From NCBI GenBank assembly GCA_021525805.1, contig GCA_021525805.1_3940.1: a stretch of DNA of 64,000 nucleotides; one strand, 5' to 3'. Positions 2,881 through 20,769 of this stretch are shown here, one piece after another. This DNA comes from a phage. Both the position numbers and the translations under genes were made by a program. The notes under the pieces were generated by a model. The model was given only the letters and a program-made list of their open reading frames with translations. It was not told the DNA's origin and did not search any database. How positions within the stretch are numbered: position 1 is the stretch's first letter; every line of letters begins with the position of its first letter.

Positions 2881-3144
2881 ATGGAAAACGTAGAATTAAC
2901 CACACTTTTACAAATTGCAACCGACAAAGAAAACGTAGCTTTATTTCACCGCATCGAAAGTGATTTGTTCAATGGTGAAATCATCAAAGAGTCTTACGAG
3001 GTTGTTGGATTCAAAGATGGTAAAACATTTGGATTCTTTGACCTCGAAAAAGGCAACGCGATTACAAAATATGATGTTTTATCTTGTGAGATTCTGACAA
3101 AATACAACGAAAAAAGGCTTGCAACATACGCCAACATGCAGTAA
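2881..3144 (+). CDS. hypothetical early protein
   Basis: 87-aa ORF after cassette; ends in TAAATTACTAATCAACG motif followed by GGGGCTAAATAGCCCC hairpin. Confidence 0.6.
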   Translation: MENVELTTLLQIATDKENVALFHRIESDLFNGEIIKESYEVVGFKDGKTFGFFDLEKGNAITKYDVLSCEILTKYNEKRLATYANMQ

Positions 3145-3149
3145 ATTAC

Positions 3150-4800
3150 TAATCAACGCAGCGGGGCTAAATAGCCCCAGATACCTTTACAGCCCCTTTC
3201 CCATATAGATTCGATAGAGTCTATCTCATAGGGGCTTTTTTACATCCTATCAAATCCCTTATACAACCCTTTCCCTTTCCTTTCCAGAATCTTATCAGAC
3301 CTTAAAAAGCAATAACTCTATAGTCTACTCTATAGCCTTTTATCAAATCAACTTAAATATAAGCCCATAACCCGAAAGGGAAGGGCAACCCCTTAAACGC
3401 TCTATAACGCTCTATAACAGCCTTATCAACCTAACTTAAAGGATTGCATTACCTCACCCTTAAAAGCCCTTTATAAAGCTTCCCAGAGCCTTAAAAGAAT
3501 CTTATAAGGGTATAAGCTTATAGGCTGACTAGTATCTTGTGAATGGTTAAACAAACCCCTTGATAGTCATTAAAAAGCATGTTATAGGGGCTATGAAGTT
3601 ACTTTGAAGTAGCTTAAAAGTTACGTAAATGCTAGCCCCCTTAACATTTTCTTAACAATTTCTTAACAAACCCTACATAGTTATGCTTTTAAGGCACTTG
3701 TTAGCAACTTGTTAGCCCCTTGTTAAATCTCTGTTAAGACCACGTAAAAGCCTTGTAAGAGTCTTTGACATAGCCTTTAAAGCCCCTGTAAAGCCCTATA
3801 AAGAGCTATCTGTACAGTTGGGCTGTAGTTACTAGGGAGAGACTTAAAAGGGGCTATACAGAGCTATACAGAGCTTTTAAGAGGTATGTTTAAAGAATCA
3901 CTAAGAAAGGAAAGGGAACGATAAGAAAAGAGTAGTGACCATGTTAATAGCTTGTTAAAAAGATTAAACACTTGTTAGGAACTTGTTAATTATCTTAACA
4001 AAATAACTCTTAAAAATTAACTTGTTAGCTCTTGTTAGTCATCTGTTAAGACTCTGTAAAGGCTATGTATCAACTGTTAAGAAATTGTTACAGCCTTGTT
4101 AGTTCTGTTAAGAAACTGTTAAGACCTCTGAAGAGTTGTTAAGAAGATGTGAGAACTGTTAAGAGATTGTTAAGGATATTTTAAAATTTTGCAAAGGGGG
4201 TGTTAAGGAGCTGTTAAGGGCTACCAAGCAGATATACATCCTAGACAGATATTTTTCAGTGCCTTCAAAGACCCTAAAAAATGACTTGATAGCCCTATTT
4301 TATAAAAATTTTAAGATTCTGAATAATTACCTATACAGTCTTTTAAAAATACAGGTAATAACAGGTTTATAAGATACCTTGTTAGTACCGTGTTAGACCT
4401 TGTGAGATAAGGTCTGTGAAGACATTCCTGTTAAGTTTGTTAAAACAGTCTATATAGAGGCTTAGTAATACCTAGTGAACACCTATAGAGAGTCATCTAT
4501 GTAACATAGAGATTAAGAGGTGTATAGGAGCTTCTAAGAGTGTGTAGAGAGATGGTTAAGGTGATTGTATAGGCTGTTAAGAAGGCTTGTTAGAAGAGTG
4601 TTTAGAAGGATTGTTAGAGGGCTAGTTAGAAGGGTTATACAGAGGGCTATTAAGACCACTAGATAGTTACTAAGATACTATATAGCACTATATAACTATA
4701 TAGAGAGTAAGATTAAGAAGGTTGTTAAGAAGGATAGATATTTTGTTCACATATGATGGTGACCCAGAGGTTGGGACAACCGATAAAATTTTATAAAAAT
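3150..4800. repeat. ORF-free repeat-rich region (phased TGTTAAG/TTGTTAG-type short repeats plus other short direct repeats and hairpins)
   Basis: no ORF of 60 aa or more on either strand; dozens of copies of CTGTTAAGA / CTTGTTAG / GGTTAAGG often about 10-11 bp apart, densest 3690-4740; also CTATAACGCTCTATAAC, CTATACAGAGCTATACAGAGC. Confidence 0.8.
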
Positions 4801-4836
4801 TAAAAAGCCCCCAATTAAGGAGGCTCTTAAGATATT

Positions 4837-5388
4837 TTAAATCAGTGTTTCCAGAACTGTCTTCAGTGATGACTTGGTTGTCTGATAAAAATGAGTGAAT
4901 CCATTGTTGTTATCGAACACCTGCATCATGATATCATCTCCCTTAATTGGGTACACTCGGATATCATAGTGAAAACCATTAAAGACAGCAGAACCATTAC
5001 AGAATGCACTAAAATCATCCACTGAGATGTACTCTTCATGACCTGTGATTTTTATACAAACGCCTTTACTCGGTCTCTTAGGGTTGATATCTTCCATCAC
5101 AGACATACTCTGTCCACCAAGAGATACCATAGTGACCACTTTACGGTTCTTCTGTCTAAAGTACATCTTAACTTTCTGCAAAGTATCTTCATAGAACGGA
5201 TAAGACTTCTCTACAAAGATTCCTTCTAATGGCTCTTTACCATTTACAGTCTCCCTGTTATGACGTACTGAGAAGATAAGTTGTCTTAGTACGTCAAGAT
5301 TTTCTTCGGAAAGTGCTTCTCGAACATCACTCCAGTCAAGTACTAGGTAGTTACCTTCAACTTCTTTTACATCTTTAAAAACTTGCAT
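4837..5388 (-). CDS. hypothetical protein
   Basis: 183-aa ORF, first gene of minus-strand block. Confidence 0.6.
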   Translation of the reverse strand: MQVFKDVKEVEGNYLVLDWSDVREALSEENLDVLRQLIFSVRHNRETVNGKEPLEGIFVEKSYPFYEDTLQKVKMYFRQKNRKVVTMVSLGGQSMSVMEDINPKRPSKGVCIKITGHEEYISVDDFSAFCNGSAVFNGFHYDIRVYPIKGDDIMMQVFDNNNGFTHFYQTTKSSLKTVLETLI

Positions 5389-16805: not shown

Positions 16806-17363
16806 ATGAGATATTTGAAGTATGCTTCATGGATTTTCTTAGCTTTACTAGACCCAATTGCAGCAACCCTAGCAGTTATCTTAGCACCTTTCGTAGTTCC
16901 ATTCTACAGTGAGAAGAAAGGGCATCTACCTTTTGGATTCAGATGGATGGAGACCTATGACAACCCGATTGATGGTGATAAAGGCCACGTTGAGAGATGG
17001 GCTAAGATTAGAAAGATTGGTAAGCTCGGTGTTTATATGCAGAGAGTTGGATGGCTCTGGAGAAACAAAGCTTATAACTTCTCTTACCATGTATTAGGAA
17101 GAGATGTAAAAGATGTTACTAAGTGGAAAGGCAATATCAACGTAAGTTCTGACCCTGAAGATAATCAGACTGGTTATCTCCTAATGTGGAACAGCAATGC
17201 TTGGGGATTATTCGCTTTTATCCCATCAATTAAAGTCTTTGGTAAACAATTTTACTGGAGAATTTATGTTGGGTGGAAACTAAAAAGTGTTGTCCCAGAA
17301 GAAAGAGCATTCTCAAGGGAAAGAGTTATGTTGGCATTCTTTATTCATCCACTGAGAAAGTAA
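16806..17363 (+). CDS. hypothetical membrane protein embedded in tRNA array
   Basis: 185-aa ORF with AAGAGG RBS; N-terminal TM segment WIFLALLDPIAATLAVILAPFVV. Confidence 0.6.
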   Translation: MRYLKYASWIFLALLDPIAATLAVILAPFVVPFYSEKKGHLPFGFRWMETYDNPIDGDKGHVERWAKIRKIGKLGVYMQRVGWLWRNKAYNFSYHVLGRDVKDVTKWKGNINVSSDPEDNQTGYLLMWNSNAWGLFAFIPSIKVFGKQFYWRIYVGWKLKSVVPEERAFSRERVMLAFFIHPLRK

Positions 17364-17371
17364 AGATTTAA

Positions 17372-17447
17372 AGGGGATTAGTTTACAAGGTTAAAACCTC
17401 GGTCTTTGAAATCGAAGAAGTTGGTTCAATTCCAACATCCCCCGCCA
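17372..17447 (+). tRNA. tRNA-Gln (anticodon TTG)
   Basis: anticodon arm TCGGT-CTTTGAA-ATCGA; T-arm GTTGGTTCAATTCCAAC perfect; CCA encoded. Confidence 0.65.
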
Positions 17448-17449
17448 AT

Positions 17450-17528
17450 GCTCCATTACTCCAATTGGCAGAGAGGCCAGACTTAAAATCTGTGTTATGT
17501 ATCGGTTCGAATCCGATATGGAGTACCA
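17450..17528 (+). tRNA. tRNA with anticodon TAA (Leu-type anticodon)
   Basis: acceptor GCTCCAT/ATGGAGT; D-loop AATTGGCAGA; loop CTTAAAA; T-arm ATCGGTTCGAATCCGAT perfect; CCA encoded. Confidence 0.6.
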
Positions 17529-17640: not shown

Positions 17641-17716
17641 GTGGCCTTATCATAAATGGTAATGACCCATGCTGTGAACATGGTCTATACGGGTTCAAAT
17701 CCCGTAGGTCACCCCA
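17641..17716 (+). tRNA. tRNA-His (anticodon GTG)
   Basis: anticodon arm CCATG-CTGTGAA-CATGG perfect; acceptor GTGGCCT/AGGTCAC; CCA encoded. Confidence 0.75.
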
Positions 17717-17722
17717 ATTTAT

Positions 17723-17798
17723 AGTCCAAGTAGCTTATATGGTTAAAGCGCGTGTCTGAAAAACATGAGAAGAGGGTTCAAATCCCACTGGACTACCA
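17723..17798 (+). tRNA. tRNA-Phe (anticodon GAA)
   Basis: anticodon arm CGTGT-CTGAAAA-ACATG; T-loop TTCAAAT; CCA encoded. Confidence 0.7.
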
Positions 17799-17814
17799 AT
17801 TTCAAAGGTGCTTA

Positions 17815-18549
17815 ATGAAAGAGATGACAGAACAAGGTAAGGAGATTTTTAATCTCTTAAAAACCGGTAAAGGGTTTTCTAACCCACTTATTACTGGTGC
17901 AGCAGTTCTCGGTGGAACCGTAGCTGCCTCAACATCACTTATAAGCTCTATTAGCTCTGTAACAGACCCTACAATGAAGGAGAAGCTTGTTGCTGCTGGA
18001 CTTACAACAGTCCTTCTAAACAGCTTTACAACAAGCCTGACAAGCACTACAGCAACTACTAAGACCCTAACAGACTATGGTCAAAAGTCTATTGATGAGT
18101 TTTCATCACGTATGCAGGTAGCAAAGGGATACTCCAATGTTATGGGTGCAGCAGGAGAACAAGTTGGTTGTACACCATTCAGTGGTATTATGGGTGTTGC
18201 TACAGAATATGGTCAAAAAGCTATTGACATGATGAACAGTACACTAGATAGTGTTAATGGTGTGTTAAGTGACTTACAAGATGCTATTGATAAGGGTCTT
18301 GATACTGTTTCTGATTTGGCTAACCAAGCTGTTAGCAAGATTAATGAAGGTATCTCAAAGATTACAGCTTATGCAGATGAAGTTGTGCAGATGATTGAAG
18401 AAGAAGCTGCCCTTATTGCAGAGTACCTTAAAACGAATATCAATGGGTTCTTAGCAGGTATCTTACCAGACTGGTTTGATGATGCTTGTAAAACTGGTGT
18501 AATCGACACTATTGCAACACCAGAAATGAAGAACGCATTGCAGAAATAA
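17815..18549 (+). CDS. hypothetical Ser/Thr/Ala-rich protein (start refined from track ORF 17752..18549)
   Basis: track ORF starts at GTG inside tRNA-Phe; ATG at 17815 lies just past the tRNA; stop abuts tRNA-Ser. Confidence 0.55.
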   Translation: MKEMTEQGKEIFNLLKTGKGFSNPLITGAAVLGGTVAASTSLISSISSVTDPTMKEKLVAAGLTTVLLNSFTTSLTSTTATTKTLTDYGQKSIDEFSSRMQVAKGYSNVMGAAGEQVGCTPFSGIMGVATEYGQKAIDMMNSTLDSVNGVLSDLQDAIDKGLDTVSDLANQAVSKINEGISKITAYADEVVQMIEEEAALIAEYLKTNINGFLAGILPDWFDDACKTGVIDTIATPEMKNALQK

Positions 18550-18945: not shown

Positions 18946-19146
18946 ATGAGTGAGACCGTTTATAAAGAACTTTATGAAGCTAATAAAAAGCTAGAATTTA
19001 TGCAGAACACTATCATGGCAATTGCAGATAGATTATCTGTAGCAACAGGTATTGATATTAAAGAAGCATCTATGGATGCACTTCTGGATGCTGTTGATGC
19101 AAAGTTCGAAGTTAAGAAAGAAGAGACTGCTACAGACTCTGAATAA
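18946..19146 (+). CDS. hypothetical small protein preceding terminase (possible small terminase subunit or accessory)
   Basis: 66-aa ORF with GGAG RBS; position only. Confidence 0.35.
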   Translation: MSETVYKELYEANKKLEFMQNTIMAIADRLSVATGIDIKEASMDALLDAVDAKFEVKKEETATDSE

Positions 19147-19152
19147 TTCTAT

Positions 19153-20769
19153 TTGCGGAGGCGCTTAATGGACTTAAATGCTGTTAAGCAGAAGCGAGTG
19201 GAAGATGTTAGGAAAGTCCTAGCTGGAGAGTTGGGGCTTTCTGATGAAGTAAAAGAAATTATTAAATCATTCGGTAAAGACCCCTCTAAATTCCTTCCAA
19301 CTCAAATTCTGACTTTATTAAGATACACACCAGACCAAGTTCGCCTTATCTTTAAATTGATGACTGATAAGAACTATGTAGCCCCTCAGCCGGGTTCTCA
19401 AGAGGTCTTTTTAAATACTAATGCTGACTTGGTTCTCTATGGTGGTGCTGCTGGTGCTGGTAAGACTGCTGCATTGTTAATGGACTCTTTAAGATTTATT
19501 GAAGACCCTAACTATAACGCTGTATATTTCCGTCGAAATACAACACAGTTACAAGGTGGTTTATGGCCTGCTGCAAAGAAACTATTTGGTAAGTTTGGTG
19601 GGATTCCTCACGAGCAGAAAATGACTATCACATTCCCTTCTGGGGCGACTATCAAGTTTACCTATCTAGAACTTGAAAAGCACGCTGAAGGTCATCAGGG
19701 TATTGAATACTCAGCTATTTACTTTGACGAAGGTACACACTTCTCTGCTTCACAGATTTCATACCTACAAACACGTCTTCGTTCTGGTGCTGAAGGTGAT
19801 TCATACATGAAAATTTCCATGAACCCAGACAGAGACCACTTTATTTATGATTGGGTAGAACCATTCTTAGATGAAGAAGGTTATCCAGACCCTGAAAAGT
19901 GTGGTCGTATTCGTTGGTATGTAATGAATGATGGTGTGATGGTTTCTGATTGGGAGAGAGACAAGATTCTTGAAATGTTCCCTCTTGAGATTCCTCAAAC
20001 ATACACCTTCATCTCTGGTACGATTGATGATAACCCAATTCTTGACTTCTTAGAACCTAAGTATCGTGGTAAGTTGGAAAACAACACCCCTGTAAACGTT
20101 GCAAGACTTCGTTTCGGTAACTGGAAGGCTCGTGCAGAAGGTTCAAACTATTGGCAAAGACAATGGTGTGAAATTGTTGATTCGCTCCCAGAGGATGTAT
20201 TTGATGTTAGAGCATGGGACTTAGCAGCGACTTTACCATCTGAAATTAACCCTAATCCAGACTGGACAGCAGGTGTTAAGATGGGTAAATCTAAAAAAGA
20301 CGGTTGCTATTATATCATTGATGTAGTAAGATTTAGAGATAGACCCTCTGGAGTCGAAACACAAATTAATTTGACTGCTGAAAGTGACGGTAAGCGAACT
20401 GGTATTTTTATCCCTCAAGACCCAGGCGCTGCTGGTAAATCCTACGCAACATCCCTCATCAGGAAACTTGCCGAGAAAGGTTATCGAGCAAGAGCCAAAC
20501 CAACAAATAAAGATAAAGTTACCCGCTTTGCGGGATTTTCTGCTGCTTCTGAAGCTGGACTTGTAAAAGTCTTGAGAGGTAGTTGGAACGAAGCTTATTT
20601 TCAAGAGCTTGAAGGCTTTTGTGGTGATGGCAAAACTAAAGATGACCAAGTGGATGCTACCAGTGATGCTTTCAACAGTCTTAACGAAGTTAAATTATTC
20701 AAGCCACCATCAATGGGTGCTCACACAGACTTAGTGAGAGGAAACCCATATGAGGGGCTTAGACGTTGA
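19153..20769 (+). CDS. terL: terminase large subunit
   Basis: 538 aa; Walker A LYGGAAGAGKTAA; Walker B-like IYFDEGTHF; gene order with portal. Confidence 0.85.
   Translation: MRRRLMDLNAVKQKRVEDVRKVLAGELGLSDEVKEIIKSFGKDPSKFLPTQILTLLRYTPDQVRLIFKLMTDKNYVAPQPGSQEVFLNTNADLVLYGGAAGAGKTAALLMDSLRFIEDPNYNAVYFRRNTTQLQGGLWPAAKKLFGKFGGIPHEQKMTITFPSGATIKFTYLELEKHAEGHQGIEYSAIYFDEGTHFSASQISYLQTRLRSGAEGDSYMKISMNPDRDHFIYDWVEPFLDEEGYPDPEKCGRIRWYVMNDGVMVSDWERDKILEMFPLEIPQTYTFISGTIDDNPILDFLEPKYRGKLENNTPVNVARLRFGNWKARAEGSNYWQRQWCEIVDSLPEDVFDVRAWDLAATLPSEINPNPDWTAGVKMGKSKKDGCYYIIDVVRFRDRPSGVETQINLTAESDGKRTGIFIPQDPGAAGKSYATSLIRKLAEKGYRARAKPTNKDKVTRFAGFSAASEAGLVKVLRGSWNEAYFQELEGFCGDGKTKDDQVDATSDAFNSLNEVKLFKPPSMGAHTDLVRGNPYEGLRR

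Follow-up and report, generated by a model that had tools for sequence, protein, structure and literature searches.

Arrays of TGTTAAG-type boxes phased at 11 bp in and around the predicted genome-end repeat of a Felix O1-like myovirus

Introduction

Short DNA boxes phased at about one helical turn flank the terminase cut site in P1 (the pac hexamers), SPP1 (pacL/pacR) and lambda (cosB), where they are bound by the DNA-recognition subunit. These sites measure 100–250 bp, against 1.6 kb for the array analysed here, a gene-free block at positions 3150–4800 of a 64,000-nucleotide stretch of phage DNA (GenBank assembly GCA_021525805.1, contig GCA_021525805.1_3940.1; below, the window, whose first letter is position 1). 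The boxes of P1 pac contain GATC and are Dam-regulated, and P1, like SPP1, uses headful packaging, which does not run between exact ends. The arrays of short repeats in T7, SRL and SRR, were reportedly first described by Dunn and Studier in 1983. In T5, the injection-stop region is an untranslated, repeat-rich part of the terminal repeat that is conserved among relatives, and DnaA boxes have been proposed as its defining feature (10.1101/866236).

The terminal repeat of Felixounavirus is itself already known. UAB_Phi87, a sister phage of UAB_69, was found to have a direct terminal repeat (DTR) of 608 bp by Bal31 digestion and run-off sequencing (PMC4837284), and PhageTerm is the reported basis for the repeats of Pr103Blw (PMC8303462) and D4 (PMC11737134). 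We found no description of the internal box arrays in the papers on the Felix O1 genome, on Felixounavirus comparison, on UAB_Phi87 and on Pr103Blw, or in the Bas63 PhageMaP screen, and the GenBank records of relatives carry only generic 'repeat_region' features. The architecture of the arrays is undescribed in the literature that we searched.

Results

The window belongs to Felixounavirus, as a 1.65-kb query from the block matched 257 phage records at ~90% identity, nearly all of them Felixounavirus. Comparison with these relatives indicates that the block is very probably the concatemer junction, or genome-end repeat, of a Felix O1-like myovirus. The three records that we checked have exact duplications at both record ends (581 bp in Pr103Blw, 581 bp in D4 and 613 bp in SeKF_63), which start at GCCCCCTTAACA (GCCCCCTTAACATTTTCTTAACAA), preceded by ACGTAAATGCTA, and end at GTTAAGGGCTACC, followed by AAGCAGATATACA. 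The window carries identical boundary sequences at 3635 (GCCCCCTTAACA) and 4225 (GTTAAGGGCTACC), and we therefore predict its DTR at 3635–4225. The predicted length, 591 bp, differs from those of the relatives because of 10–11-bp unit differences. In two relatives the stretch is annotated as a direct terminal repeat, Pr103Blw (581 bp) and UAB_69 (618 bp), and the annotated boundaries of the latter agree with 3635/4225 within 2 nt. The homologous sequence is thus a repeat duplicated at both virion ends in relatives, as seen in the three records and in UAB_Phi87.

Since the repeat ends of relatives map to 3635 and 4225, the 1.6-kb array would consist of the DTR and two non-coding flanks of ~0.4 kb and ~0.6 kb. 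A preliminary description of this DNA, made from the letters of the sequence and a list of open reading frames (ORFs), had named a packaging site as one of four options; that option fits, though the link to the DTR, and so to the physical ends of virion DNA, had been missed. The DTR is present once in the window, in a collapsed or permuted representation, because the source record was opened elsewhere. Virion DNA would begin at 3635, continue rightwards round the whole map and end at 4225, and more than 1 kb of gene-free DNA would therefore lie at each end; the left flank would be placed directly inward of the right-end copy of the DTR.

The orientation of the boxes follows the predicted ends. 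Three inverted boxes (TTAACA) stand at 3641/3652/3663, and from 3697 on every box is direct. As the boxes just inside the left boundary are inverted and a long run of direct boxes stops 5 nt from the right one, both virion ends read inward in the same way: a few bases, CCC, then TTAACA-N5-TTAACA. This pattern fits a protein engaging both ends in the same orientation. Such a layout could also serve to handle the DNA ends after ejection, if the arrays bound a host or phage protein and thereby caused a pause in entry, protected the ends from RecBCD or helped to join them. The expected presence of more than 1 kb of non-coding DNA at both virion ends, the like orientation of boxes relative to each end, and the untranslated, repeat-rich stretch in the terminal repeat of T5 (10.1101/866236) would all suit this role. 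We regard it as quite improbable, as this block lacks the DnaA boxes on which the T5 model centres and no sequence similarity to T5 was seen. It also counts against an entry role that we know of no report of two-step injection for Felix O1-like phages.

The repeat array noted in the preliminary description is real and lies far beyond chance. In the gap between the flanking genes we counted 30 copies of TGTTA on the + strand and 7 on the − strand, while 2.6 are expected from the rest of the window. The longer motif TGTTA[AG] occurs 28 and 4 times, respectively, that is, at 17 per kb on the + strand compared with 0.93 per kb per strand elsewhere (~18-fold), and none of the 500-bp bins outside the gap across the 64 kb reaches 4 copies. 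An 11-bp spacing predominates (3699/3710/3721/3732, 3942/3953, 3973/3984, 4106/4117, 4157/4168, 4201/4212 and 4380/4391), with further phased boxes at 4023/4033/4044. Consistently, autocorrelation at lag 11, scored against windows of the same length elsewhere, gave z = 8.9 in 3635–4225 and z = 4.1 in the left flank (3236–3634); in the right flank (4226–4800) the corresponding signal was at lag 12 (z = 4.4). Tandem Repeats Finder, proposed earlier as a check, reported 13 small arrays with periods of 10–12.

Two clusters had been singled out before as the densest. The one at 3940–4190 stands, with 16 exact boxes in 3942–4212, the last of which ends 5 nt short of the right DTR boundary; the one at 4540–4740 proved more degenerate, with 4 exact boxes and units such as AGGCTTGTTAGA at a 12-bp period. 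The other direct repeats quoted earlier are also present (CTCTATAACG in 2.3 copies, GCTATACAGA in 2.3 and CTTAACAATTT in 2.7). The repeat types that we inspected share a common frame, CT-N4-AG, as exemplified by CTTGTTAG, CTGTTAAG, CTTAAAAG, CTATACAG and CTATATAG. There are 62 occurrences of this frame, compared with 15 expected (4-fold), while CT-N3-AG and CT-N5-AG are depleted, with 4 and 3 copies.

Four exact TGTTAAG copies at fixed spacing were found in 21 IMG/VR stretches, at least 3 of them from Ounavirinae, compared with 5 and 11 stretches for two permuted control 7-mers. Because this excess is only ~2–3-fold and may be coincidence, we make no claim for the 11-bp TGTTAAG array as a widespread phage element. 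Apparently unrelated IMG/VR viral contigs do contain perfect 11-bp tandem arrays with the same core (contig L116, 8593–8723, TGTTAAGAACT in 10 copies; contig L078, 5689–5800, TGTTAAGAAGA/AAAA in 8 copies).

We compared the block with its counterparts in related phages. Four genera share the gap, its size and the order of its elements: Felixounavirus, Suspvirus (SUSP1), Mooglevirus (Sf18, KMM4) and Kolesnikvirus (Erwinia phage phiEa21-4). The DTR is 75–76% identical to those of SUSP1 and Sf18, while the neighbouring gene is at 49–56%. The segment at 4226–4370 shows 92–96% identity within the genus, 79% to Sf18 and 66% to SUSP1, and the left flank (3243–3634) 68–74% to other genera. Within the DTR, the TGTTA/TAACA cores are conserved at 97.2% compared with 85.6% at other DTR positions (23 distinct sequences; permutation p < 1e-4). 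The block GGGCTACCAAGCAGATATACA was identical in 9/9 hand-picked records from three genera (Felixounavirus, Suspvirus and Mooglevirus); because the 23-sequence set had been retrieved with GGGCTACCAAGCAGATATACA as the search pattern, its value of 100% for this block is not independent and adds nothing on its conservation. Felixounavirus, Suspvirus and Mooglevirus all keep the inverted boxes on the left, which can still be recognised in phiEa21-4.

Although its TerL is only 69% identical, phiEa21-4 has a syntenic gap of 1.4 kb with 11 TGTTAAG copies against 0.2 expected and a lag-11 autocorrelation of z = 8.4. It retains AAGCAGATATACA and TTTTGCAAAGG as well as three inverted boxes on the left, and its flank arrays consist of other N4 fillings (CTTCTAAG, CTTCTCAG) of the CT-N4-AG frame. 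From the homology of the boundary blocks, the DTR of phiEa21-4 (gap at L041 16472–17912) is expected at ~17026–17464 of the record. The annotated gene gp32 of that phage (222 nt, 17660–17881) falls within the right-flank array and may be spurious.

The alignment of relatives is broken mostly by indels of 11, 22, 33, 88, 99, 110 and 121 bp. All of these sizes except 33 bp recur in the left flank; the copy number at 3697–3740 differs among relatives by 11, 22 or 33 bp, and that at 4594–4617 is variable as well. Altogether, of 54 indels of at least 5 bp, 32 have a length that is a multiple of 11 or differs from one by 1 bp, and 14 are multiples of 3. As judged from the alignment, this is the signature of non-coding and presumably protein-bound DNA that can gain or lose whole units and still keep its helical phase.

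Steps of 11 bp in copy number between close relatives would also be seen if the block were a neutral spacer, that is, a terminal buffer zone in which only the cut sites matter and 11-bp units come and go through slippage during replication or through unequal recombination. The lack of special conservation of the right-flank boxes agrees with such a spacer. We nevertheless consider it very improbable, since the core motif, the phasing and the order of elements persist in four genera in which adjacent genes have diverged to ~50%, the cores are more conserved than the spacers, and one frame is enriched while its neighbours are depleted. The alternative raised in the preliminary description, random low-complexity sequence with no conservation in relatives, disagrees with the same data.

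The coordinates of the individual parts of the block are collected in Table 1. The two boundary regions form an imperfect inverted repeat with arms of 33 nt (3638–3670 and 4188–4220), which are 73% complementary.

Table 1. Parts of the gene-free block, by position in the window
Feature	Position	Strand	Description or basis
Terminator region of the + block	3163–3242	+	small hairpin 3163–3178; large hairpin 3191–3236, then U6; minimum free energy −32.5 kcal/mol, z = −4.65
Left-flank array	3243–3634	+	unique, C-rich 10–11-bp units: CCTTAAAAG, CTCTATAACG x2, CTTATAAG; 13 CT-N4-AG units
Predicted DTR, 591 bp	3635–4225	+	terminal duplications of relatives
Three inverted boxes, TTAACA at 11-bp spacing	3638–3670	−	just inside left DTR boundary; left arm of terminal inverted repeat
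Four tandem CTTGTTAG / CTGTTAAG units	3697–3740	+	exact 11-bp spacing
Main array, 16 direct TGTTA[AG] boxes	3940–4220	+	box positions; core conservation
Block GGGCTACCAAGCAGATATACA, 21 nt, spanning right DTR boundary	4218–4238	+	putative cutting determinant
Conserved non-repetitive segment outside DTR	4226–4370	+	~35 bp at 4296–4330 are 90% A+T
Right-flank arrays	4371–4745	+	G-rich: TACCTTGTTAG x2.7, AGGCTTGTTAGA x5 (12-bp period), CTATATAG copies, TTGTTAAGAAGG
Terminator of the minus block	4803–4828	−	10-bp stem, then U5

The gap extends from the stop of the last + strand gene at 3144 to the stop of the first minus-strand gene at 4837, and the convergent arrangement of the flanking blocks had been described correctly. 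Annotated relatives have an equivalent gap between equivalent convergent blocks, with one terminator on each side; in AYO145A terminators are annotated at the places homologous to both of those listed in Table 1. The hairpins mentioned in the preliminary description turned out to be these two terminators, both of which give convincing predicted folds in the window and by which the junction is, as predicted from sequence, insulated from both converging gene blocks. The genes next to the gap encode small hypothetical proteins. In most relatives the + strand genes end, ahead of the non-coding DNA, with one of 249 bp (Felix01p049, VOG6038). This gene is missing in this phage, and a 264-bp gene (2881–3144) here runs straight into the terminator (3144–3160 area).

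The longest ORFs in 3145–4836 encode 41, 37, 35 and 33 aa, in agreement with the earlier statement that none reaches 60 aa. Tiny coding sequences have been annotated in the gap by some depositors, and the best promoter-like site, TTAACA-N17-TAAAAT, on the minus strand at 4206–4178 (10/12 matches), could be taken to serve a hidden gene, whether for a short peptide or for a structured non-coding RNA. This explanation is exceedingly unlikely. Besides the shortness of the ORFs, indels cluster on multiples of 11 and not of 3, and in SUSP1 a 29-bp insertion breaks the 37-aa ORF at 4259–4372, so we rejected the small ORFs as genes; no conserved short ORF, which would have spoken against a non-coding array, is present. 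An Rfam scan of 3000–5000 at a permissive threshold returned no family, with two sub-threshold chance matches at the minus-strand terminator, and a scan for sigma-70 promoters gave 9 sites compared with 7.1 ± 2.9 in shuffled sequences, that is, no enrichment. The site at 4206–4178, part of a highly conserved block on the inner side of the right DTR boundary, points into the repeat, which recalls the leftward A0 promoter of T7.

Another possibility is that the block is a replication origin, with the boxes as iterons that a phage initiator would bind and the A+T stretch at 4296–4330 as the unwinding element; such a function could coexist with a role of the DTR. Phased direct repeats do adjoin a conserved A+T-rich segment, though in a genome that is A+T-rich throughout, the core is insulated from transcription, and the block is strongly conserved across genera. 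Searches for DnaA boxes gave 0 matches to TTWTNCACA in 3150–4800, and those for IHF sites, Chi, GATC and 13-mers found nothing in the gap. The neighbouring genes, being small hypothetical proteins, include no recognisable initiator gene. GC skew, recommended earlier as a check, changes sign near 3700; we rejected this flip as an origin signal, as it arises locally from the C-rich left flank and the G-rich right flank, tracks gene strand, and is not a genome-wide switch. An origin would, in addition, leave unexplained why the boxes stop no more than 5 nt away from a mapped end of the DNA. We thus judge it unlikely, and the origin suggested in the preliminary description gained no positive support, nor did the transcriptional silencer and the partition site.

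We then considered the terminase. TerL, encoded at 19153–20769, is 99% identical to TerL of Bas63 and 69% to that of phiEa21-4, and matches Terminase_6N/6C. TerL of the Felix O1 type forms its own DTR cluster (PMC4837284), so that the phage has the terminase of a clade with proven short exact repeats. A 66-aa ORF (18946–19146, +), acidic and probably helical, stops 7 nt upstream of terL. It falls into a PHROG whose function is unknown, with one DUF match below the threshold; its positional equivalent in phiEa21-4, gp45, shows weak similarity (30% identity over 43 aa). By position only, its product is a candidate small terminase.

As a separate observation, GATC is absent from the whole window (1–64000), where a second-order model predicts ~215 copies. 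Many 6-bp palindromes are absent too (CTGCAG, 0 against 24 expected; ATGCAT, 0 against 15; CAGCTG, 0 against 12; CCATGG, 0 against 12). This looks like strong avoidance of restriction sites and Dam sites.

Discussion

The cis-element described above is real and strongly conserved. It should not surprise a specialist. Taken as one statement, that the block is the genome-end junction and that its boxes guide cutting, duplication of the DTR and packaging, our interpretation has in our view a somewhat better than even chance. Its functional part, that the boxes mark or organise the junction for these processes, we propose tentatively, at slightly under an even chance. We favour this function because the boxes reach both mapped ends and are oriented alike relative to each, because boxes and boundary block are conserved alongside TerL across genera, and because the junction appears to be shielded from transcription.

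From the phasing and conservation we infer a binding protein and the effect of its binding. A phage protein, possibly the terminase, or else a small subunit or an accessory factor, would bind the TGTTAAG-type boxes (CT-N4-AG, one per helical turn) along one face of the helix. With the protein bound, a nucleoprotein complex would form at the junction, and this complex may position two cuts 591 bp apart, let the repeat be duplicated and initiate packaging. Cooperative protein binding had been suggested for the phased arrays before; the 11-bp phasing, the higher conservation of cores than of spacers and the 11-bp indels fit it, although that interpretation as a whole is only partly supported.

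Several points weigh against a role of the boxes in cutting and packaging. The DTR boundaries in this phage rest on homology. At the two cut sites the local similarity allows both a direct reading (GCTA before each cut) and an inverted one, which makes the geometry of cutting ambiguous; we therefore dropped the notion of the cut sites as a clean inverted pair, and only for the flanking boxes is the inverted orientation robust. The exact boxes of the right flank are conserved no better than their surroundings (0.84 versus 0.87). No small terminase is annotated in Bas63, the DNA-recognition protein for the boxes was not found, and the 66-aa ORF upstream of terL gave no significant match in Pfam and none in PDB. 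Finally, the role of the T7 arrays is, to our knowledge, not settled either.

It is also conceivable, though rather unlikely, that the boxes serve as the recognition code for a machine, specific to Ounavirinae, that generates the DNA ends. In this scheme, a protein would span one face of ~600 bp of CT-N4-AG / TGTTAAG boxes, the inverted boxes on the left and the direct boxes on the right would place nicks in opposite strands one repeat apart, and strand-displacement synthesis would duplicate the repeat. If true, the long-postulated staggered-nick route to exact repeats would become directly testable in a myovirus without a recognisable small terminase.

Felix O1-like phages are widely used in the typing of Salmonella and E. 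coli, in biocontrol and in therapy, and their genomes are often deposited with an arbitrary start and a collapsed terminal repeat. The boundaries GCCCCCTTAACA and GTTAAGGGCTACC allow any member of the group to be oriented and annotated without extra experiments. The box arrays, conserved in four genera, provide a defined target in the search for the DNA-recognition partner of the terminase, and a way to ask how exact short terminal repeats arise outside the T7 group. For engineering (genome rebooting, cell-free synthesis, transducing particles), the most likely location of the minimal cis-acting packaging element is 3600–4400.

Among described systems, the terminal repeats of other Felixounavirus phages (UAB_Phi87, 608 bp; Pr103Blw, 581 bp; D4, 581 bp; SeKF_63, 613 bp; UAB_69, 618 bp) are ~90% identical to the DTR predicted here and share its boundary context and convergent gene blocks; they differ from it in length. 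A P1-type pac site would be expected to carry GATC, of which there are 0 copies in the whole window. The comparison with the injection-stop region of T5, made in the preliminary description, holds for the anatomy, as both phages have a large untranslated repeat-rich stretch inside or beside the terminal repeat. It fails for the DnaA boxes, of which T5 has 8 in a fixed arrangement and this block 0, and the repeat of T5 is ~10 kb long and contains genes.

The concatemer junction of T7 would, by analogy, be the closest functional counterpart of the arrays. In the T7 record, 13 CCTAAAG boxes, most of them spaced at 13 bp, are spread over the 160-bp repeat and the flank on either side of it, and a leftward promoter (A0) is annotated at position 224, inside the array. 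Thus in both phages a 7-bp core recurs about once per turn, within the repeat as well as on either side of it, in non-coding DNA that adjoins the terminase cut sites (predicted ones, in the present case). The two differ in the core and its frame (CCTAAAG and CT-N2-AG in T7, TGTTAAG and CT-N4-AG here), so that neither a shared core nor common descent is indicated, as well as in period (13 versus 11 bp) and in the length of the repeat (160 versus 591 bp). Genes run one way through the junction of T7, whereas two blocks converge on it here, and T7 is an unrelated podovirus with its own RNA polymerase, whereas the present phage is a myovirus. Because core, period and phage lineage differ, we treat T7 as an analogy and not as a group to which this locus belongs.

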